Assembly (NCBI GenBank): GCA_965203905.1
Contig: CBDBDQ010000005.1
Span: 4,640,001 to 4,704,000 of the forward strand
Length of the DNA stretch: 64,000 nt
Source: Spirochaetia bacterium
Lineage (GTDB): Bacteria; Spirochaetota; Spirochaetia; SZUA-6; Bin103
Direction: 5' to 3'
The notes under the pieces were generated by a model. It ran no database searches and was not told where the DNA came from. It was given only the letters and a program-made list of their open reading frames with translations. Numbering within the stretch: the first letter of the stretch is position 1; each line of letters starts with the position of its first letter. Positions 27,658 through 61,466 of this stretch are shown here, piece by piece. The translations under genes and the position numbers were made by a program.

Positions 27658-27873
27658 CGCGCTACTCCGCGCAGCGCGCTGCCTGCGTGCCGCGTAGCGC
27701 GACAGCTCCAGGTCTCCGCCTTCCAATCCATCACGTCGCGCATACTACTCTGCACCGGTCGCCGACGTCCTCACCGTTTGGCCCTGGGGCAAGGACGACA
27801 TGACCTGCTGTCGTGCTCGCTGACACACCGGCTGGTCGCCGAACGCGCGCCCGCGGCGTCCGTAAGCGCCCGT

Positions 27874-28269
27874 CAGGGCCATCCCATGCTGAACGATGTC
27901 TGCATCCCGTGGTGTGGGCGAGCTGCGGTGATGCCCCGGCGCGGCGCCTGCCAGATCGCCGCCTTCTGGGTGTGTGGTTCGTTCGCTGTACGACGTGTCC
28001 AGAAAAGAGGGGGTAGCCGCCACCAGCAACGCGCCGGTCTCCGCCGCTGCCTTGCTGGGCTTGTCGGCGCCGCGGTGCAGGATTCTGCAGAAAAGGTGCA
28101 AAAAAGTGCGCTGAGTACTTGACGGGTTTGGCGCTGCTCGTGACGGCCTCCTGCCGCACGTGCCGGCCCCTCCGACCCTTCGAACATCCCCCCGCGCCCT
28201 CCCAGGCCATCAGCACCCCGCCAGCGCCGGCCTGAGCCCTTCCCGATGCCGGTCCGGGACTCTCCGAGA
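27874..28269 (+). repeat. Conserved non-coding leader of HNH element (continues 30869-30902)
   Basis: Aligns with the reverse complement of 58916-59395. Confidence 0.85.
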
Positions 28270-28282
28270 GTAAGTATTCGGT

Positions 28283-29179
28283 CTACAGGTTGGGGGGCGG
28301 ATCAAGAGGAGCGCACAGTCGACGGCGGAAGTCGCGCCTGAGCGGGTAGAGCCAGATGTCTTTGGTGGGCAGCGTGTGCATTCGACGTACGTCGAGTTTG
28401 CCGCGTCCTTGGGTTTGTCCGACGTGGGTCCAGTTGGCGGCGCGGTAGCTGGTACCGGCGAAGCGGTCGGACTGCACGAAGGTCTCCAGCAGCAGCGGTC
28501 GGTACCCATAACGCGCCTGCCAGTCGGCGGGCAGCCGGCGGCTGATGCGCGCCAGCACGGTGGAAGCGAGATTGCACACCTGCACCCAAGGCAGGATCAA
28601 GAAGCGGGCGTTGTTCACCACCAGGTGCAGCCGCGCTTCGCGCTGGGCAACGCTCCAGCCGATGAAGCGGTCGCGAGGAGCCGCCTTCCAGGCGCTGGCG
28701 CCAAAGCCGACCACCGCCAGCACCTGCCGCTGGCAGGTGACCAAGTAGCGCTGCTGCGCACCCGGTAGCGGCGTATAGCCAAGGTAGTGGTAGCGGTCCA
28801 CGTACTCGCGCCATAGGAGCGCTTCGCGCTGATCGGCCAGCGGTCGTACCTGCAGCGCGGGCAGCTCATCGACGCGGGCGCTGATCGGCAGCTCCGGTTC
28901 CGCCTGCGCGGTACGACGGCGGCGCAGCGTGCCGTTGTAGTGACGCCGCCGCGGCGCCGGCAGCCGGATGAGCCCGTCGCGGTGCATGCGCAGCATCGCG
29001 ACGCGACAGCTCATGTCCTTCAGTTGTCCGTTGGCACGCCGCCAGTGCAGCCGTTCGCACACCACCTTCGAGAGGGCGAACCGATGGCGGGTAGGGTCCT
29101 CAGCGATGAGCGCGCGGATCAACTGCAGCTCCTGCTCGCTGAAGGGCCGGCCGCAGTAGCGCACCGCCTCAGGCGGCAC
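28283..29179 (-). CDS. DUF4338 (DruA-like domain) protein
   Basis: YCGRPFS, LSKVVCERLHW, RYHYLGY, VNNARFLILPW, LLETFV, GTSYRAANW..VGQTQGRG; stop lies inside TIR. Confidence 0.85.
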   Translation of the reverse strand: MPPEAVRYCGRPFSEQELQLIRALIAEDPTRHRFALSKVVCERLHWRRANGQLKDMSCRVAMLRMHRDGLIRLPAPRRRHYNGTLRRRRTAQAEPELPISARVDELPALQVRPLADQREALLWREYVDRYHYLGYTPLPGAQQRYLVTCQRQVLAVVGFGASAWKAAPRDRFIGWSVAQREARLHLVVNNARFLILPWVQVCNLASTVLARISRRLPADWQARYGYRPLLLETFVQSDRFAGTSYRAANWTHVGQTQGRGKLDVRRMHTLPTKDIWLYPLRRDFRRRLCAPLDPPPNL

Positions 29180-30794
29180 GGTCGTCGACCAGCTTGGCGG
29201 GTGAGCCGCGGGGCAGCAAGCGCGCCTCGGGACGGTGCCAGGGCAGGAACCGCTCGTAGTCTTCAGGCACGCGAGCGCCGGCGACCGCACAGGCGCTCAG
29301 GTACTCGGTCAGCCAAGTACGCGGGTTGATCTGCCATCGTTCGAGGGTGTGGAACAGGCTGAACAGCGCCGCGCTCAACTCACCGCTCCACTGCGCCCCC
29401 GAGCCGTAGTAGTTCTTGCGCCCCACCACCGGGCCGCGCAGCGCACGCTCGGCTTGATTATTGTCCAGCGGCAAGTCGGGATCCTCGACGAACCGCGTCA
29501 GCCCCTGCCAGTGGTTGCGCATGCTGCGCAGCACCTTCGCACACGCTGCCGCCAGCTTCGGCTGCTGCGCCAGTTCGCGCTCTCGTCGCTCTTCCATCGC
29601 CTGCACCACCGCCCGCAACGCCGCATCGGCCGCCGCGTACTGCGCGGGCTCACCACGCACCTCAAGACGCTCGTCGTTCAGGCGATACAGCGTAGCGATG
29701 TCAGCCAGCCACTGCTCGGCCCACTCCTGCTGATCGTCCCGCTCATGGGCTACCGTGATGAAGTCGCGGCGCATGTGCACCCAGCAGAACGACAACTCCA
29801 GCTCGGTATCCTTGGCCAGCCGCTTGTACGAGGAGAAGCGGTCGACGCTCACCACGCCCCCCGTCACGGTCGCAAAATGCTGCTTCGGCACCCGCGCCGA
29901 ACGGGTTGGATCGAGCGTGAATACCACCACCTCGGCACTCCAGAACAGCCACAGACACCAGCGCTGGCAGGTGTCCTCGCTGGCCGCCTCGAACACCTGC
30001 CAGCTGGTCTCGTCAGCATGCCAGTGCTCGCTCGTGCGGCTGCGTTCGATCAGCGCCTCGCGCAGTGGCGCGAACAACGGCGCCAGACGCCGCAGACCGT
30101 CGGTGACGGTGCCTTGGGCAAGATCCAGCCCATGCGTGCGTAGATCCGCGAGCAACCGATGCGTGGGCCGGTACAGCAGATACTTGTCGAGCAGCACCGT
30201 CACCCAGATCGAGATCCCCAGGATGCCGTTCGGGATCAGCCGTGGCGGCGCTGGCGCCGTGAGCACCGCCGCGGCCGCCGTGCACTGGCAGCTGCGGCGG
30301 TAGCGCCGCCGCTTGATCACCCGCCGGTAGGCGCGCACCTCGACTTCCAACTGCTCGGAATCCTCGCTGCCGTGCGAATGATACTCAGCGCCGCAGGCCG
30401 CGCAGCGGCGCCGGTCCGGGGCAACGTCGTGTGCTTCAACCTGTACCGGCAGGTGTGCGTGCCGGCGCCGACCATGGCTTGGCGCCCCGGGTTGCTGACC
30501 GCGGCGCCGCGGTGGCGCGGCGGTTGCCTCAGGAGCGCCGCCACTCCTGGTTCGCTTCTCGCTGCCGCGGCGCCGTGCCCAGCGTTCCCGCAGGCGCTGG
30601 CGCAGTTCCTTGAGCTTGGCCCGTGCCGCTTGCAGTTTCTGTTTCAGCCGTTGCTCGCGCGCTACCGCCTTGCCGTGCATCCTGCGGTAATAGCGCGCCT
30701 GTCGTCGCAGCTCTACTACCTCGCACCGCAACTCGTCCATCTGGCTCTGGCACGCCGCCGTGCAGCCACTCGTTTTCCGCCAGAACCCTCCCAC
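29169..30794 (-). CDS. IS66 transposase TnpC
   Basis: Coiled coil, CAACG zinc finger, HADET, SVDRFSSY, CWVHMRR, DNNQAERALR..VVGRKN; alternative start 30740. Confidence 0.93.
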   Translation of the reverse strand: MGGFWRKTSGCTAACQSQMDELRCEVVELRRQARYYRRMHGKAVAREQRLKQKLQAARAKLKELRQRLRERWARRRGSEKRTRSGGAPEATAAPPRRRGQQPGAPSHGRRRHAHLPVQVEAHDVAPDRRRCAACGAEYHSHGSEDSEQLEVEVRAYRRVIKRRRYRRSCQCTAAAAVLTAPAPPRLIPNGILGISIWVTVLLDKYLLYRPTHRLLADLRTHGLDLAQGTVTDGLRRLAPLFAPLREALIERSRTSEHWHADETSWQVFEAASEDTCQRWCLWLFWSAEVVVFTLDPTRSARVPKQHFATVTGGVVSVDRFSSYKRLAKDTELELSFCWVHMRRDFITVAHERDDQQEWAEQWLADIATLYRLNDERLEVRGEPAQYAAADAALRAVVQAMEERRERELAQQPKLAAACAKVLRSMRNHWQGLTRFVEDPDLPLDNNQAERALRGPVVGRKNYYGSGAQWSGELSAALFSLFHTLERWQINPRTWLTEYLSACAVAGARVPEDYERFLPWHRPEARLLPRGSPAKLVDDRAA

Positions 30795-30902
30795 ACCTCA
30801 TTCGTAGCACACCGGTCCGGATGTGTCCAGCGGTCCCACACCGGTAGACCGAATGTTTACCTCCGAGATCTGTCATTTCTCAGCCATGCTTATATTTACG
30901 CC

Positions 30903-32279
30903 ATGGCTACCGCGACCGCTCCCGGCTTCTCCTCCTCGCTCTCCGGGCTCCCCGACCAGGTGCTGCTGGCGCATACCAGGTCGCTCGTCCTGCACGAGCA
31001 GGCACTGCAGCTCGCCGTCCTCGACCACTTGCGCGAGATCCACGCCCGCCACCTCCACCTGCGCCTCGGGTTCTCCAGCCTGTTCGACTACGCCGTGCGC
31101 GAGCTGGGCTATAGCGAGGGTGCCGCCTGGCGCCGTATCAAAGCCATGCGCCTGTGCTCCGATACCGCCGGGACCCGCGAGCGGCTGCAGGACGGCTCGC
31201 TCTCCCTGAGCGCCGCGGCGCAGTTGCAGAACACCTTCGATCTCCTGCAGCGCACGGCGACCACCGCCGCGGACCCCGGCTCGCCACCCGCGGCACCGGA
31301 GCTGCTGCCGCTCGGCACGGGTCCGGCGCCGGAGGCGGGGGCTTCCGGGACCGGGGCAGCGGCGGCAGCGCGACCGCTGCCGGCGCTGGACGCGGCGCAG
31401 CGGCAGGAGCTGGTGGCGCAGGCGAGCGGCAAGAGCACCCGCGAGGTGAAGCAGTTGTTGGCCGGGGTGGCTCCCGAGCTGGCGCGGCCGGCCGATCGCA
31501 TGCGGGCGCTGGGCGAGGGCCGCTGGGAGCTGAAGGTGGTGATCGACTCTGCCTGTCAGTGCGGGATCGAGCAGCTACGAGCACTGCTGTCGCACGTGGA
31601 CCCGCACCTGACGCTGGGACAGCTGGTGGAGCGGCTGGTGCAGGACGGCCCGCAGCGCTACGACCCCGGGCGACCGCCGCGCGGGCGCAGAGGTGGGCAC
31701 CGAGAGGCAAGCGCGGGCCAAGCGCAGGAGCCGACGGCGCAGCAAGGGCCGGCAGGCGGGGCAACTTCGCCGGCGAAGTGGGGCGCGCAAGAGCAACCCG
31801 GAGTGCCACCGACGCCGGAGGGCACGAGCGCCGGTGGCAGGACCCCGGCGCCGGCAGCGCTGTCCGTAGAGGAACCCGCGTGCGGGATTGGCCGTGCCGA
31901 CACCTCGGCGGTGGCAGCGCTGTCCGCGCCGCCGTCGGGGCGCGAGACTTGCGGCGGCAGCACGCCGGTGAGTGCCAAGCCAGCGGCGGCAGCGCCCGGC
32001 ACTGCTCCTTCGGCGGCGAAGTTGGTGGCCGATCGTGGGTCCCACGCCACCGTACCGACGCCGCCGGCAGACCAGAGCATGCCGACCGCACTGGCAGCGG
32101 CGGATGGCGGTCGCAGCGCTCCTTCGCCAGCGAAGCGGGCAGGGACGGCGCAGCGGGCAGGAGCGCAGCTCGATGGCCGTTCGCGGCCGCAGGCGGCGGC
32201 AGCCGGCCCCTCCGGAGGCAGCGCGCAGCCGTCCCACCGGCCGCGCCGATCCCGCTACATTAGCGTGGGATTGTCCTGA
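30903..32279 (+). pseudogene. DUF222-like HNH endonuclease gene, C-terminal HNH domain lost
   Basis: HLREI..RHLHLRLGFSSLFDYAVRELGYSEGAAWRRI; ends RRSRYI joined directly to TIR. Confidence 0.85.
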
Positions 32280-32296
32280 GCGCCCGTAGCGAGGGG

Positions 32297-56107: not shown

Positions 56108-57112
56108 TCAGACGTCGGACCAGAAGATGAGGGCGCCGATCACGCCGTCGGCGTTGCCTTCGAGGATGCGGCGGTAGAGATTCGGCGCCTCGAGGCGACT
56201 TACGCGGTGGGTGACCGTATGCTCCCACGGCAGGTAGCCGAGGGCGAGGTTGTGCATGATCGTCTCCCGCGCCGGTTCCTCCCCGTCGTTGCAGGGGAAG
56301 AACATCCGCAGCCGCTTGCCGTGCGGCGGGGGGTAGCGGAAGCTGATCGGGTCCTTGCCGTAGTGGCCCTGCCACACGAACTTGCCGCGCGCCCGGGTCA
56401 GGGCGATGGCGGCGTCGATGTTCTGCGGCAGGCCGGTCGCTTCGAACACCACGTCGCAGCCGCCCGGCCAGCGCTCTTCCACCGCCTGCGCCACGTCGGT
56501 GGTGGAGGCGTCGATCAGGTGACGGGCGCCGAGCTTGCGCGCCACTCTCAGGCGTGCCGCGTCCCGGTCCACGGCCACCACCTCGCAGCCGCGCAGGTTG
56601 GCCCACATCACCACCGACAGGCCCACCAGGCCGACGCCGAACACCAGCACGGAGTCGCCCAGGCGCGGGTTGCTGATGTCGACGCCGTGCAGCCCGACGC
56701 CGGGAAGCACGAAGGCACTGGCCACGTCCAGCGGCGTCCCGGCGGGCAGGTGCGCGGTATCGGGCCGCCGCGCATCGATCACCGAGTGGCTGGAGTGGGT
56801 GCCGGCGGCGGTGCACACAGTATCCCCGTCGAGCAGCATCCCCGGGCTGGCACGGAAGTATACCAGGTCGCCGGCCGCGTAGCCGGACACCTCCGCGCCG
56901 GCCGCTTCGACGACGCCGGTCGCGGTGTAGCCGGTACACAGCGGATAGAAGATGCGGTCCAGGGTCGAGCGCACCATCATGAACTCGGTGCCGATGCTGA
57001 CCCCCGACCACAGCGTGCGAAGCACCAAGTCGTGAGGACCGGGGTCGGGGAGGGTCACCTCGCGCAACGCGAACCGTCGCTGCGCATCACAGATCAGCGC
57101 GTGTGCGTTCAC
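56108..57112 (-). CDS. Zn-binding alcohol dehydrogenase-fold oxidoreductase
   Basis: SGVSIGTE, GY..TGVV, GVGLVG, FEATG; AGGAGG RBS. Confidence 0.85.
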   Translation of the reverse strand: MNAHALICDAQRRFALREVTLPDPGPHDLVLRTLWSGVSIGTEFMMVRSTLDRIFYPLCTGYTATGVVEAAGAEVSGYAAGDLVYFRASPGMLLDGDTVCTAAGTHSSHSVIDARRPDTAHLPAGTPLDVASAFVLPGVGLHGVDISNPRLGDSVLVFGVGLVGLSVVMWANLRGCEVVAVDRDAARLRVARKLGARHLIDASTTDVAQAVEERWPGGCDVVFEATGLPQNIDAAIALTRARGKFVWQGHYGKDPISFRYPPPHGKRLRMFFPCNDGEEPARETIMHNLALGYLPWEHTVTHRVSRLEAPNLYRRILEGNADGVIGALIFWSDV

Positions 57113-57178
57113 TTCTTCGTGCCTCCTGGTTCCGGCCGACTGCTTGGCGACGCTCCATGCGGCCTGCCGGTGGCAGTT

Positions 57179-57207
57179 CTGTTATTCCGTTTCGGAGTGG
57201 CTGTCAA
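57179..57207 (-). promoter_or_regulatory. Sigma70 promoter of dehydrogenase gene, next to copy 2 insertion site
   Basis: TTGACA-17 nt-TAACAG; TCCG-AAA-CGGA palindrome in spacer. Confidence 0.6.
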
Positions 57208-57226
57208 CCGCGCGCCGGCTCCATTG

Positions 57227-59395
57227 CCCGGCTATCCCACGCTGCGCGACAAGCCGGCTGCAAATCGTTACTACGGCTGCCATCGGACCGACACCCAACG
57301 GCCCAACTGGCGCCCCCGGCGAGCGCCGATCACGTAGCCCCGTCTGGCGGCGGCCCGTCCTCCCGATGCCGGAAGCGGTGGTGAGCAGAACAATGAAGCC
57401 TGAGGTTCCCCGGCTCAGCGCTGCCGCCGAGCGCGAAGGGAACGATGTGGTCGAGCTCCAGCAGGAAGCGGGAGCCGCAGCGCCGCCCGCTGTGCGGATC
57501 GACGTAACTGCAACAGCCGCCGTCGCGGCGCCACACCTCGCGCCGCACTGGTGCCGGAATATACCGGGATCGACGCGCCCGCTGGCGCGGCTGCGCGCTG
57601 TCTCGGGACGGGCCGGCTGCCTCTGGCTGCGGCCGCGAATGGCCATCGACCTGCACCGCTCCTGCCCGCTTCGCCGCCCCGGCCCGCTTCGCTGGCGAAG
57701 GAGCGCTGCGACGGCGATCCGCCACTGCCAGCGCGGTCGGCATGCTCTGGTCTGCCGGCGGCGTCGGTACGGTGGCGTGGGACCCGCAACCAGCCACCAA
57801 CTTCGCCGCCGAAGCAGCGGTGCCGGGCGCCGCCACCGCTGGCTTGGCACTCACCGGGGTGCTGCCGCCGCAAGTCTCGCGCCCCGACGGCGGCGCGGAC
57901 AGCACTGCCACCGCCGAGGTGCCGGCGCCGCCATTCCCGCGCGCGGGTTCCTCTGCGGACAGAGCCGGCGCCGTGGTGCTGCCACCGGCGCTCGTGCCCG
58001 CCGGCGGCGACGGCACTCCGGGTTGCTCTTGCACGTCCCGCTTCGCCGGCGAAGTCCCTCCGCCCGCCGGCCCGTCCTGCGCCTTCGGCTCCAGCGCCTG
58101 GCCCGCGCTTGCCTCCCGGCGCCCATCTCTGCGCCCGCGCGGCGGTCGCCCCGGGTCGTAGCGCTGCAGGCCGTCCTGCACCAGCCGCTCCACCAGCTGC
58201 CCCAGCGTCAGGTGCGGGTCCACGTGCGACAGCAGTGCCCGGAGTTGCTCGATCCCGCACTGACAGGCAGCGTCGATCACCACCTTCAGCTCCCAGCGGC
58301 CGTCGCCCAGCGCCCGCATGCGATCGGCCGGCCGCGCCAGCTCGGGAGCCACCCCGGCCAACAACTGCTTCACCTCGCGCGTGCTCTTGCCGCTCGCCTG
58401 CGCCACCAGCTCCTGCCGCTGCGCCGCGTCCAGCGCCGGCACCGGTCGCGCCGGCGCCGCTGCCCCGGTCCTGGAAGCCCCGCCTCCGGCGCCGTCCCCG
58501 TGGCGCCCGGCAGCAGCTCCGGGGCCGCGGGTGCCGAGCCGGGGTCCACCGCGGCGGTGGCTGTGCGCTGCAGGAGATCGAAGGTGTTCTGCAACTGCGC
58601 CGCCGCGCTCAGGGAGAGCGAGCCGTACTGCAGCCGCTCGCGTGATCCGGCGGTATCGGAGCACAGGCGCATGGCTTTGATACGGCGCCAGGCGGCGCCT
58701 TCGCTGTAGCCCAGCTCGCGCACGGCGTAGTCGAACAGGCTGGAGAACCCGAGGCGCAGGTGGAGGTGGCGGGCGTGGATCTCGCGCAGGTGGTCGAGGA
58801 CGGCGAGCTGCAGCGCCTGCTCGTGCAGGACGAGGGACCTGGTATGCGCCAGCAGCACCTGGTCGGGGAGCCCGGAGAGCGAGGAGGAGAAGCCGGTGGC
58901 GGTCGCGGGAGCCATGGCGTAAATATACTCATGGCTGAGAAATGTCCGGTTTCTGAAAGTCCCGGACCGGCACTGGGAAGGGCTCAGGCCGGCGCTGGCG
59001 GGGTGCTGACGGGCCTGGAGGGCGTGGCGGGATGTTCGAAGGGTCGGAGGGGCCGGAACATGTGTCAGGAGGCCGTTACGAGCAGCGCCAAACCCGGCAA
59101 GTGCTCAGCGCAATTTTTTGCACTTTTTTCGCACAATCCTGCACCGCGGCGCCGCACCGTGGTCGACTAGGTGCCGCCATCAAGGCTGGCTACAGCGAGA
59201 GGTCGACCCAACGTGGCAGCAGCGCATCGGCGGAGACCGGCGCGTTGCGGGTGGGCGGCAACCCACCCATTCCTGGACACATCATACAGCGAACGACCCC
59301 GCACCCCCTATAAGCGGCGATCTGGCAGGCACCGGGGCCATCACCGCCGCTTGTCCACACGGGATTCAGCCGTCGTTCAGCATGGGATGGCCCTG
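57227..59395 (-). mobile_element. TIR/TSD-bounded DUF222-like/HNH element, copy 2 (full length)
   Basis: Inverted repeats 57230-57250 / 59372-59392 (17/21); direct repeats GGCTCCATTG (57217-57226) and GGCTCAATTG (59396-59405). Confidence 0.85.
57330..58915 (-). pseudogene. DUF222-like HNH endonuclease (~528 aa) with -1 frameshift in a G run
   Basis: Paralogue of 30903-32279; C-terminal RRDGGCCSY...C...ELDHIVP...GG...NLRLHCSAHH; G4 at 58478-58481 versus G5 in copy 1. Confidence 0.85.
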
Positions 59396-59600
59396 GGCTC
59401 AATTGATGCCGGATCTCTCACGGAGCGCCGGCGCTCACGGCGGCAGCCGCCGGTTCCCTGACCCCCGGCTGCCGCAGGACGTCGAGCGCCGCCGCCGCGT
59501 CGAACGACTCGGCTGGATGCGCTGGCGGTCGCGGGCGCGGTGATTTACAGTACGCTGCGGAAGTGGCGATGGCAGTCCAGGGCCGCGCCGGAGGGCGATC

Positions 59601-61466
59601 ATGATGGACGTTCCGCCCCGCCTGCAGGCGAACCTGCGGCATCTTTACGGGGCAGGCGCCGATGCGGCGCTGGCGGAGCTGCACCAACTGTGGGCGTGCC
59701 ACGGGTTGGCTGCGGCGCCGCAGGCGGCCGGGACGGAGCTGGGGGCGCCGGGCGCTGCGGCGGCGATGCCGGGCGCCGGCGACGTGGCACTGATCGCTTA
59801 CGCCGACTCGATCCGCGGCACTGCGGGCGCGCCGCTGGAAGCGCTGCGGCGGTTCGTCGAGCGTTACCTGGCGCGAACCATCAACACGCTGCATCTGCTG
59901 CCGTTCTTCCCTTGGGACACGGACCGCGGCTTCTCGGTCCAGGACTACCGCGCGGTCGACCCGCGCAACGGCACCTGGGCCGACATCGAGGCGCTGGCGG
60001 CGGAGTTCAGCCACCTGATGGTCGACCTGGTGATCAATCACGCCTCGCTGGACAACCCGCTGGTGCAGGGGGCGCTGACCGGCGACCCGCGCTACCGCGA
60101 CTTCGTGATCCGGTACGACGACGGCGCCCAGCCGGATGCGGCGGCGCTGGCGCAGCTCACCCGGCCGCGGCCGGACCCGGTATTGACCCGATATTACGTT
60201 GTAGCCACGGATGGCCGCAAAGGTGCGACGTTCGATCCGGACTCCGAGTCTGCCGCCGCCACCGGGGGTTGGGTCTGGACCACCTTCTCGCGCCCGCCCA
60301 ATGCCGACGGCAGCGCCGCCACCCGGCAGGTCGACCTCAACTTTCGCAACCCGCGGGTGCTGCTGGAGATGCTGGAGGTGCTGCTGTGCTATCGCGAGCA
60401 CGGCGCCGACTGGGTGCGGCTGGATGCGGCCGGCTACATGTGGAAGGAGTTGGGCACGCCGAGCATCCATCATCCCAACACCCACCGCCTGCTGCAGGTG
60501 CTGCGCGACGCGCTGGCCGGCCGCGCGGAGCTGGTGAGCGTGGCGGAGGTGAACGAGCCGCAGGACACGGTGCTGCCGTACCTCGGAAGCGCCGACGCAG
60601 GGGTGGAGTCCGACCTGGCATACCAGTTCGCGCACTTCCCGCTGGCGGTGCACGCGCTGCACTCCGGCGACGCGCGCCACTACAAGCGCTGGCTCGGAAC
60701 CCTGGAGCCGTTCGCGGGACGCCAGTTCATCACGGTGTTCGGCAGCCACGACGGCATGGGCCGCAAACCGGTGCTCGGGCTGTTGCCGGACGAGGACCTG
60801 GAGCGGATGGTGCAGGATCTGGTCGCCCGCCACGGCGCGCTGCCCAACTATGCACGGCAGGCCGGCGGCGGGCGCATCATCTACGAGCTGTGCGCCACTC
60901 CGTGGAGCCTGATCAATCGCGCGGATGCGGATGAACCGCTCCAGATCCAGGTCGATCGCTACACGGCCTGCGCGGCGCTCGGCCTGGTGCTGCGCGGAGT
61001 GCCGGCGTTCTACATCAACGGACTGCTCGGCGTTCCCAACCGGCTCGATCGGCGGCAACTGGACGAGAACCGCTCGATCAACCGCGAGCAGTTCGACGAG
61101 ACGGCGCTATACGCGGAGCTGGACGAGCGCGGCAACCAGATGCGGCTGGTGCTGGAGCGGCTCCTGCACCTGATTGCGCTGCGCACACGGGAGCCGGCGT
61201 TCGCACCCGGCGGTCCACCGCTGGAAGTGCTCGACAGTCCGGACCCGGTCGTCGCGGTCGTCGCCGCCGGCGGCGGACGCCGCGTGCTGGCCGTGACCAA
61301 CGTCTCGGGGCTGCCGCAGCGGCTGCGCCTGGAGCGCGCCCTGTTCCCGGTTCGAAACCGCGTACGCGAGTTGATCACCGGGGTGGAAGTGCCCGTGCCT
61401 GAGGCCGCGCCGTGGGAGCTGTCGCTGGCTGCCTACGAAGTGCGCTGGCTCGCCGCCACCCGATGA
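59601..61466 (+). CDS. GH13 sucrose phosphorylase-family glycoside phosphorylase
   Basis: HLLPFFP..DRGF, DLVINHAS, WTTFS..QVDLN, RLDAAGYMWK, AEVNE, SHDGMG. Confidence 0.88.
   Translation: MMDVPPRLQANLRHLYGAGADAALAELHQLWACHGLAAAPQAAGTELGAPGAAAAMPGAGDVALIAYADSIRGTAGAPLEALRRFVERYLARTINTLHLLPFFPWDTDRGFSVQDYRAVDPRNGTWADIEALAAEFSHLMVDLVINHASLDNPLVQGALTGDPRYRDFVIRYDDGAQPDAAALAQLTRPRPDPVLTRYYVVATDGRKGATFDPDSESAAATGGWVWTTFSRPPNADGSAATRQVDLNFRNPRVLLEMLEVLLCYREHGADWVRLDAAGYMWKELGTPSIHHPNTHRLLQVLRDALAGRAELVSVAEVNEPQDTVLPYLGSADAGVESDLAYQFAHFPLAVHALHSGDARHYKRWLGTLEPFAGRQFITVFGSHDGMGRKPVLGLLPDEDLERMVQDLVARHGALPNYARQAGGGRIIYELCATPWSLINRADADEPLQIQVDRYTACAALGLVLRGVPAFYINGLLGVPNRLDRRQLDENRSINREQFDETALYAELDERGNQMRLVLERLLHLIALRTREPAFAPGGPPLEVLDSPDPVVAVVAAGGGRRVLAVTNVSGLPQRLRLERALFPVRNRVRELITGVEVPVPEAAPWELSLAAYEVRWLAATR

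Follow-up and report, generated by a model that had tools for sequence, protein, structure and literature searches.

A multicopy, transposase-less HNH nuclease cassette of a Spirochaetia genome most probably derives from an ISAs1-family insertion sequence

How a multicopy repeat with transposon-like ends could have spread when its only gene encodes an HNH nuclease was the question raised by this locus. The window, which is the whole 64,000-nt stretch of DNA that was analyzed, belongs to a genome of ~8 Mb (98.7% complete) from a high-GC Spirochaetia lineage, whose relatives are labelled Spirochaetia MAGs. The initial annotation had offered two readings of the repeat: a non-autonomous transposon carrying the nuclease as cargo, or a new element class in which the HNH protein is the mobility enzyme. 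Two cassette copies were located exactly where that annotation had placed them, at 57227-59395 on the minus strand and 27874-32278 on the plus strand, with an ORF identity of 92%. The abrupt start and inverted N7-type end that it had described also held up, as homology begins at CAGGGCCATCCCATGCT and finishes at AGCGTGGGAT+N7 with identical boundaries in both copies. The cassette is a unit of ~2.1 kb with sharp termini; its inverted repeats are imperfect (CAGGGCCATCCCATGCTG / CAGGACTATCCCACGCTG), its target duplications measure 9 bp, and each window copy has its own direct repeats, as first read.

Copy 2 lies on the minus strand and is bounded on its IRR side by the target-site duplication GGCTCCATTG (57217..57226), which has one mismatch against the duplication GGCTCAATTG on the IRL side (59396..59405). 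Between these lie the IRR (57227..57244; plus strand CCCGGCTATCCCACGCTG, family consensus read inward CAGGACTATCCCACGCTG), the gene for a nuclease with a helical domain, linker and HNH domain (57330..58915), a non-coding leader of ~480 nt (58916..59377; ~430 nt in the reference copy), and the IRL (59378..59395; CAGGGCCATCCCATGCTG). The gene was recovered by tblastn in two pieces, in frames 1 and 3, and its ORF is split by a 1-nt deletion near 58477 into ORFs at 58370-58915 and 57330-58664. The HNH domain falls at ~57333-57566, as placed by the Pfam HNH match on the intact reference copy (L006:1601-3169:-).

Copy 1, on the plus strand, is flanked on the left (27865..27873) and right (32279..32287) by AGCGCCCGT. 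Its IRL and leader run from 27874 to 28269, where the sequence is interrupted by a foreign IS66-family IS of 2591 bp on the minus strand (28270..30860; ends GTAAGTATTCGGTCTAC / GTAAACATTCGGTCTAC), which is itself flanked by the 8-bp duplication CTCCGAGA (28262-28269 and 30861-30868). Its genes are those for an IS66 transposase (29169-30794; PF03050, E 9.9e-60) and a DruA-like protein (28283-29290; PF14236, E 7.1e-48). The claim that the repeat holds no DDE transposase was therefore right for the unit itself and wrong for copy 1 as it stands, which holds the one of the IS66 intruder. The nuclease ORF of copy 1, aligned at 30904..32260 on the plus strand and followed by the IRR (32261..32278; TAGCGTGGGATTGTCCTG), is truncated, its HNH domain having been lost through an internal deletion of ~300 bp. 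Both window copies are defective.

A whole-genome BLAST search with the unit yielded 66 groups, 52 of which (at least 84% identity) formed family A; 35 groups covered the query from position 130 or earlier to position 2100 or later. Both termini were recognized in 26 copies, and a duplication of 8-10 nt with at most one mismatch flanked 16 of these. Duplications of exactly 9 nt were found in 10/26 same-copy pairs of flanks, vs. 4/1232 cross-copy pairs, three of those four being halves of split copies, and the excess of matches is therefore far beyond chance. The family-A repeat is confirmed as a real transposing element, in agreement with the initial call of a mobile element. The sequence of the duplication differs from site to site, while its length is mostly 9 bp. 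A homing-endonuclease gene, considered as another candidate, would enter a single recognition sequence through break repair and leave no target duplication, and does not fit this 9-bp duplication, different at each site. The remaining 14 BLAST groups (family B, 75-83% identity) lie inside a larger repeat and have no ends of the family-A type. As a side observation, flanks have been exchanged between family-A copies, and the nuclease gene is interrupted by a large integrative element that has a tyrosine integrase; such units are sources of large rearrangements and targets for integration.

The closest relative, G003, has the window locus without the element, but also without ~19 and ~105 bp of the adjoining spacer. 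No clean empty site was obtained among the relatives, since the spacer of G003 differs and those of the others are too diverged, and none of 16 reconstructed junctions was spanned by a BLAST match to a paralogous empty site within the genome. Contigs from four public runs (X1, X3, X4, and X7) were compared with window positions 56200-60400; none skips the whole element and none contains a circle junction. Contigs of X1, X3, and X4 bridge the junction between element and flank, which indicates presence only, as rare excision is invisible in contigs.

The intact family-A protein has 523 aa, is encoded by the single ORF of the unit, and gave only HNH-type matches in Pfam and NCBIfam; neither collection detected a transposase domain between the ends. 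PF01844 (HNH) was found as the C-terminal domain in 16 of 17 family members, among which residues D484, H485, N499, H507, and H508 vary little or not at all. The description of the gene as DUF222-like found no confirmation in HMM searches, as PF02720 (DUF222) matched 0/17 members at E<=0.05 and hhalign aligned the family-A protein with true DUF222-HNH proteins over the HNH domain alone. The sole lead toward DUF222 was a cluster of language-model features bearing that name (score 0.94), in which 12% of the members have PF02720. An AlphaFold2 model of the N-terminal domain was confident (pLDDT >90 at residues 20-120). A Foldseek search of this domain against the PDB returned nothing at E<=0.001; the best matches were DNA-binding domains of ParB/SopB/Noc at E ~1-2, and the predicted domain offers only a hint of a helix-turn-helix.

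Autonomous IS with the same ends, 2.13-2.16 kb long and with an ORF of 603-606 aa, were found in the sister genomes G010 (4 copies), G001 (4), G033 (2), G004, and G035. The G010 protein contains DDE_Tnp_1_assoc and DDE_Tnp_1 and matched the ISAs1 model NF033564 at 150.7 bits (cut-off 70). The ends of the sister-genome IS read CAGGGCGATCCCATGCTG / CAGGACGATCCCACGCT or similar, the IRL of the G035 IS (locus L175) is that of family A over 19/19 nt, and perfect 9-bp duplications were present at all six IS copies examined (L167, L168, L169, L178, L186, and L193). The autonomous transposase with matching TIRs that the initial annotation had envisaged thus exists intact in sister genomes, while the source genome holds relics only. 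In the latter, PF13808 had no matches, and a search with the DDE region of the G010 protein recovered only transposase fragments, at C5:4758225-4758631 and C5:4213316-4213408; that an intact copy was overlooked is unlikely but possible, the genome being 98.7% complete. When the end motif was used to look for a partner IS in the source genome, nothing emerged beyond family C and a small number of solo ends (C5:6668207, 6024971, 4213730, and 5178528, and C1:2962), the latter not being termini of repeated elements.

Several further kinds of element share these ends. In G008, ORF-less miniatures of ~140 bp form at least 25 inward-facing pairs of ends 102-135 nt apart (104 matches), with 8-9-bp duplications in 3/3 examined. 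In the source genome, an Rpn/YhgA-like gene (L031; PF04754, E 9.8e-16) occupies a sister cassette of 1.29 kb (G000:C5:5515052-5516341) with two full copies and one partial copy, and in G004 and G006 a true DUF222+HNH gene lies within ISAs1-type ends in the opposite orientation. Because the same ends surround a DDE IS, miniatures, an Rpn-like gene, and a DUF222-HNH gene, they are not confined to the HNH gene of family A.

These findings indicated that the unit is, in all likelihood, a transposase-less derivative of an ISAs1-family IS, a cassette mobilized in trans and comparable to a mobile insertion cassette (MIC), with the nuclease as cargo; it does not constitute a new class of transposon. 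Of the two original readings, the first was thereby upheld by the ends and 9-bp duplications shared with intact sister-genome ISAs1 IS and by the G008 miniatures, and the second found no support, given the lack of specificity of the ends for the HNH gene. In the proposed mechanism, the terminal inverted repeats of the ISAs1 type would have been retained while the transposase gene was replaced by a self-contained nuclease gene and its ~430-nt leader. Acting in trans, a DDE transposase of the ISAs1 family would bind both ends, excise the cassette, and insert it into a target cut with a 9-bp stagger; repair of the cuts would yield the 9-bp duplication. The mover would have been the ISAs1-type IS seen in the sister genomes or a close relative formerly in the source genome, and we infer that trans-mobilization in the source genome is historical. 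As only relics of the transposase are left there, the cassettes are probably stranded, which the absence of near-identical copies fits. The nuclease is cargo in that it is not required for moving these ends.

The view that the HNH protein itself acts as transposase and defines a new element class, its ISAs1-like ends being due to convergence or reverse capture, was considered highly improbable. In its favor, the nuclease gene is the sole intact gene within the ends and the source genome has no intact cognate DDE transposase, but a DDE IS without the HNH gene has the same ends and makes the same 9-bp duplications, and the ends also occur on the ORF-less miniatures. Homologs of the HNH gene provided a further comparison, as they were found within ISKra4-type ends in G010 and within a third type of ends in G009. 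The unrelated ends match different DDE IS (ISAs1 and ISKra4), the partner in G010 being an IS of 1521 bp with a match of 214.6 bits to NF033572 (ISKra4), which argues against a transposase role for the protein common to them. No partner IS for the third end type was seen in G009, and duplications of ~9 bp are made by all three types of HNH cassette (ISAs1-, ISKra4-, and third-type ends), both of which would favor the HNH protein as mover; however, the ISKra4-type IS itself generates duplications of 8-9 bp. Strand-transfer chemistry by the HNH fold is not known to us. Scarcely credible, in our estimate, was the proposal that the Rpn/YhgA-like PD-(D/E)XK protein of the 1.29-kb cassette moves both cassette types in the source genome. 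Its gene is the only other intact one there bounded by the same ends, its Pfam family is named Transposase_31, and databases list the protein as a putative transposase, but just two full copies and one partial copy were found, the 9-mers flanking the cassette agree at only 6/9 positions, and relatives hold a genuine ISAs1 DDE element with matching ends. We know of no Rpn protein with demonstrated transposition.

Returning to the preferred reading, a trans-mobilized ISAs1 derivative, the condition of the cargo required an explanation of its own. The ORF is intact in 25 of 26 copies at ~9% divergence, dN/dS of the folded domains is 0.19-0.23, and pN/pS is 0.16-0.30 in the 12 closest copy pairs, with all three folded domains constrained. 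Indels are multiples of three in 29/31 cases within the CDS vs. 12/84 in the non-coding parts. The HNH cargo is under purifying selection, and on these substitution and indel patterns the nuclease appears to be kept functional although it is cargo; intact ORFs, low dN/dS, and in-frame indels therefore make passive cargo alone insufficient as an explanation. Passive cargo likewise does not account for the presence of this gene family within ISKra4-type ends in G010 and third-type ends in G009. Within the leader, the half nearest the gene shows 95-96% conservation from copy to copy. None of the Rfam families passed its gathering cut-off there (one chance match below threshold, 24.1 bits vs. 40), and a sigma-70 consensus scan of the leader returned 0 sites.

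With the nuclease under such selection, a helper role in mobility may be considered. In its stronger form, the IS transposase would move the cassette and the nuclease would act as an active helper that raises copy number or retention, which we regard as unlikely; breaks that prompt recopying of the donor site through repair, or a penalty on loss, might be among the routes. Constraint on the three folded domains, which extends to the closest copy pairs, and the in-frame indels of the CDS are in keeping with a helper, but the selection could equally act at the level of the host, for example through defense. Nucleases also recur as sole cargo (the A-type HNH in three end types, the DUF222-HNH, and the Rpn-like PD-(D/E)XK), while in G008 the miniatures, which have these ends but no ORF, proliferated without the gene. 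Finally, HNH cassettes outnumber their parent IS in G010, where 33 loci match the reference HNH cassette vs. 9 counted pairs of ends spaced for the 1521-bp IS, but an excess of copies over the parent is also usual for ordinary non-autonomous elements. More broadly, though this too is unlikely, HNH genes, and perhaps Rpn-like PD-(D/E)XK genes, could be specialized hitch-hikers that repeatedly come to lie within resident IS ends, out-multiply the parent IS and are selected because nuclease activity aids spread or persistence.

Multicopy genes of the 13E12-like kind, in which a helical N-terminal domain accompanies the HNH domain, are widespread, and here the route of spread can be read from borrowed IS ends and clean target duplications. 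Dozens of copies preserve the cargo, only relics of the parent transposase are left in the source genome, and related genomes have the same gene family within unrelated IS ends; these three unusual traits make the question of passive cargo or helper directly testable. If the genes are indeed hitch-hikers, multicopy DUF222/13E12-like HNH genes would have a general means of spread in IS ends. For annotation, such units resemble a new transposon yet are IS derivatives.

Family A resembles REP13E12 of Mycobacterium tuberculosis: both exist in multiple copies, and both encode a helical region at the N terminus and an HNH domain at the C terminus. The element phiRv1 inserts inside REP13E12, a likeness to the tyrosine-integrase element inside a family-A gene. 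The exchange of flanks between family-A copies also recalls REP13E12, copies of which serve as recombination substrates according to PMC13157036. The family-A protein differs in having no Pfam DUF222 match and a profile alignment with DUF222-HNH limited to the HNH domain, and its host is a high-GC member of the Spirochaetia, not an actinobacterium. In the portions of the literature that were accessible, no paper was found in which defined inverted ends or target duplications are ascribed to REP13E12, nor any description of an HNH/DUF222 gene as cargo of an IS-derived cassette.

For the ISAs1 family, PMC11946415 gives inverted repeats of 14-22 bp beginning CAGGG and direct repeats of 10 bp, and PMC6305408 gives CAGGGCTGATGC... 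and 10 bp for ISArsp11; the unit, with inverted repeats beginning CAGGG and a duplication of 8-10 bp, resembles both descriptions. In contrast to ISAs1, the unit has no DDE_Tnp_1_assoc / DDE_Tnp_1 transposase, which is present only in the sister-genome partner, and the transposase of that partner is itself of unusual length (603-606 aa) and bears a DruA-like domain (PF14236) at its N terminus. The unit shares with MITEs its non-autonomy, the ends of a parent IS, and a high copy number, and the ~140-bp elements of G008 carry these very ends; however, it is 2.1 kb long and encodes a protein kept intact by selection.

MIC231 of Bacillus cereus is a mobile insertion cassette. In the ISfinder usage given in PMC3129680, the term MIC denotes passenger genes that lie between inverted repeats of IS origin and are not accompanied by a transposase. 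The unit is similar to a MIC in its IS-type inverted ends, its duplication of parental length, the absence of a transposase, its one passenger gene, and the matching IS in related genomes. It differs in its very large number of copies (52 BLAST groups) given a length of 2 kb, in a nuclease cargo under purifying selection, in a parent transposase that has ceased to be intact in the genome of the cassettes, and in a cargo family that is also found within the ends of unrelated IS families.

Both copies of the unit within the window were damaged. Copy 1 (27874-32278, + strand) and copy 2 (57227-59395, - strand), located by sequence reading and BLAST in DNA of 69.5% G+C, started with CAGGGCCATCCCATGCT and ended with AGCGTGGGAT followed by 7 nt, and each lay between direct repeats of its own, AGCGCCCGT on both flanks of copy 1 and GGCTCCATTG / GGCTCAATTG around copy 2; reading of the sequence bore out the initial annotation in describing two copies with abrupt common ends and separate repeats. 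One base was missing near 58477, splitting the ORF of copy 2. Copy 1 was interrupted by a 2591-bp IS66-family element (28270-30860; 8-bp duplication CTCCGAGA) encoding an IS66 transposase and a DruA-like (PF14236) protein, and had lost about 300 bp including the HNH domain, with the right end still present. The DruA-like ORF of this IS66 element had six identical tblastn matches in the genome, two of them within copies of the unit (copy 1 and C5:7575723-7580428, on contig C5), in both cases just upstream of the nuclease start codon.

A BLAST search with the unit in its own genome (G000; 7.99 Mb in five contigs, with the window at C5:4640001-4704000) yielded 154 HSPs in 66 groups, 52 of which belonged to family A, the cassette itself (at least 84% identity), and 14 to a diverged family B. 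Thirty-nine of the 52 spanned at least 1900 bp, and 35 ran from query position 130 or lower to 2100 or higher. Motif search placed 37 left and 34 right ends, with both ends in 26 copies; the consensus ends, CAGGGCCATCCCATGCTGAACGACGTCTG... and ...CGCAGCGTGGGATAGTCCTG, formed an inverted repeat of 17-18 nt that was imperfect and consistently asymmetric, one end reading GGGC..CCCATGCT and the opposite one GGAC..CCCACGCT. A duplication of 8-10 nt with at most one mismatch, different at every site, flanked 16 of the 26 two-ended copies, and the 10 copies without it included rearranged, truncated or decayed cases. In a control at exactly 9 nt, same-copy flanks matched in 10 of 26 pairs, compared with 4 of 1232 cross-copy pairs, two of which were halves of one copy split by a ~67-kb insertion and another of which came from two copies 155 kb apart. 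The latter (right flank at C5:3749629; left flank of C5:3904262-3906362) carried one 9-nt duplication, CCTCCCGCC, on their outer flanks, as recombination of a copy-bearing 155-kb segment into a resident copy would produce. A deletion derivative of ~240 bp consisting of ends only (C5:5072028-5072266) adjoined a full copy, the two being bracketed by a single 9-nt duplication, TCACATCAA. No clean empty site was found in relatives or within the genome, and no form skipping the element was found in contigs of four public runs.

An autonomous transposase with the same ends, which the initial annotation had proposed to seek, was found in related genomes. The 17-nt end pattern (at most one mismatch) was present in 20 of 24 same-family genomes, a reversed control pattern being almost without matches, and in G010, G001, G033, G004 and G035 the same ends bounded elements of 2.13-2.16 kb that encoded a 603-606-aa ORF and had perfect 9-bp duplications at those read (L167, L168, L169, L178, L186 and L193). 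The G010 ORF matched DruA-like, DDE_Tnp_1_assoc and DDE_Tnp_1 in Pfam and the ISAs1 family transposase in NCBIfam (150.7 bits; cut-off 70). Published accounts give ISAs1 inverted repeats of 14-22 bp starting CAGGG and 10-bp direct repeats, in agreement with the ends here (PMC11946415; PMC6305408). The asymmetry of the family-A ends also occurred in some ISAs1-type IS (G033, G035), and the left repeat in G035 equaled that of family A over 19 nt. Intact transposase ORFs numbered four in G010, four plus one diverged in G001, two in G033, and one each in G004 and G035, with fragments in G018, G006, G015, G005 and the genome of the window. In the latter, PF13808 had no match and only relics were present (C5:4758225-4758631 and C5:4213316-4213408), the second adjoining a solo end at about 4213713-4213730. 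As a side observation, the DDE part of the ORF at L167:760-2568 (- strand, G010) and of its homologues in G001, G004, G033 and G035 was fused to a DruA-like domain at the N-terminus, the same domain that forms a separate ORF in the IS66 element of the window.

The ISAs1-type ends work without the nuclease and bear other cargo. Among 154 end-motif matches in the genome (at most three mismatches in 18 nt), the only other pair-bounded element was a 1.29-kb family C cassette (C5:5515052-5516341, L031 501-1790; second copy at C5:3261700, partial copy at C5:6957520), whose sole gene encoded a 342-aa Rpn/YhgA-like PD-(D/E)XK protein (PF04754, E 9.8e-16), making it a second nuclease-only cassette with these ends. 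Related genome G008 (88% complete, 340 contigs) had 104 end-pattern matches, and among those listed at least 25 pairs faced inward at a spacing of 102-135 nt, corresponding to miniature elements of ~140 bp; three that were read had 8-9-bp duplications and had in common with family A both the repeat and the adjoining TCGCGCAGC.

The nuclease gene, in turn, occurred between other ends. Relatives carried homologues of the family-A protein (44-58% identity) in multiple copies. One reference cassette of ~1.8 kb, with ends GGGCGCACTTCCAATTTG... / ...CATTTTGGAAATGCGCCC, had matches at 33 loci in G010, and the 9-nt flanking duplication was clean in one copy read (L125) and partial in others. In G010 these ends also bounded a 1521-bp IS (nine pairs at that spacing) that makes 8-9-bp duplications and whose 467-aa transposase belongs to the ISKra4 family (NF033572, 214.6 bits; cut-off 205). 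ISKra4, a member of the Mutator-like superfamily (PMC3942029), is unrelated to ISAs1. A third inverted-repeat type of ~27 nt, GGGTGCGAACGCCGAAAGCGGTATTGA, bounded the HNH cassettes of G009; both copies read (L045, L066) had 9-bp duplications, and the 18 pattern matches in that genome included no evident autonomous partner.

Full-length, single-frame tblastn alignments were obtained for 25 of 26 copies, the exception being window copy 2, and none of the 25 had an in-frame stop. The intact 523-aa reference (L006:1601-3169, - strand) had HNH as its sole Pfam match (E 1.1e-4, residues 474-513), with HNH_5 and the HNH part of IscB below threshold. In an AlphaFold2 model from a 17-sequence alignment, residues about 13-123 formed a helical N-terminal domain predicted with confidence and residues ~164-253 another small domain; positions 263-445 were a disordered linker, and the HNH domain was modelled with low confidence. 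No PDB structure reached E<=0.001 in a Foldseek search, in which ParB/SopB/Noc DNA-binding domains ranked highest, at insignificant scores. Pairwise Nei-Gojobori dN/dS over the 25 ORFs (mean dS 0.155) was 0.19 for the N-terminal, 0.23 for the middle and 0.22 for the HNH domain, compared with 0.93-1.27 for the linkers, and domain pN/pS was still 0.16-0.30 in the 12 closest pairs. Coding sequences were 87-97% identical (median 91%), with no near-identical pairs. A nucleotide alignment of 24 copies, from which two with large insertions were omitted, had 31 indel events in the coding sequence; 29 of these were multiples of three, compared with 11 of 69 in the leader and 1 of 15 in the 3' tail. Frame-keeping indels, low domain dN/dS and intact ORFs together indicate that purifying selection acted on the protein as the copies diverged. 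The leader matched no known RNA family and no sigma-70 consensus promoter.

The label "DUF222-like" in the initial annotation was not upheld, as Pfam DUF222 matched none of 17 family-A-type proteins and the likeness to the true DUF222-HNH family was confined to the HNH domain (BLASTP E 2e-6; hhalign probability 94.5% over 69 columns). A language-model search with residues 1-260 led to a cluster bearing the name DUF222 (score 0.94), 12% of whose members carry PF02720; this serves as a lead only. A true DUF222 and HNH gene (PF02720, E 2.2e-20) occurred in G004 and G006 in 2.23-kb cassettes with ISAs1-type ends, oriented oppositely to family A relative to the asymmetric ends and with duplications matching at 9/9 (L217) and 8/9 (L204) positions. 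In the genome of the window this family had 16 matches (for example C5:4926554, 1180133, 764510, 7321900 and 2630098), several with in-frame stops, and three scanned copies (L205, L212, L218) had no convincing ISAs1-type ends. The 14 family-B groups, with a diverged nuclease-gene homologue (75-83% nucleotide identity; for example C5:441758-443216, 2336810-2338033 and 3697666-3698853), also lacked such ends, and several lay within a larger common repeat.

These findings indicated that the unit is a non-autonomous ISAs1 derivative resembling a mobile insertion cassette (IS-derived ends around a passenger gene), and that the nuclease is not the transposase. The initial annotation had offered two readings; a non-autonomous transposon with nuclease cargo is favored, as the ends and 9-bp duplications are those of an ISAs1 IS intact in sister genomes, and a new element class moved by the nuclease is disfavored, as the same ends bound a DDE IS, ORF-less miniatures and other cargo. 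An ISAs1-type transposase would have moved the unit and since decayed in this genome, which fits the relics and the absence of near-identical copies. That the nuclease ORF is strongly conserved across dozens of copies, and that nuclease genes recur as the only cargo between ends of unrelated IS families, is not explained by passive cargo and leaves some room for a helper or retention role of the nuclease, a role that we consider rather unlikely. No paper reporting IS-derived cassettes with an HNH or DUF222 gene as cargo was found in the portion of the literature consulted.

Three integrative elements of ~67-70 kb, related to one another and situated outside the window (C5:1894039-1960757; C5:4749553-4817210; C3:29559-99788), interrupted nuclease genes of family A; all were inserted at a common 15-nt core, AGCCTGTTCGACTAC, which occurred at both junctions. 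In the element at C5:1894039-1960757, one end encoded a tyrosine integrase with an Arm-binding domain (L202:3082-4287, - strand) and the opposite end a DNA methylase and an AAA ATPase. On contig C3 (106,776 bp) the left flank of one chromosomal copy of family A was linked to the right flank of a different copy (partners C5:5059888 and C5:2967982), with the 70-kb integrative element in between; the contig may reflect either another arrangement present in the sampled population or an assembly variant. phiRv1 integrates into REP13E12, and the integrative elements here may be likened to that pair, as they too lie inside a multicopy HNH gene.
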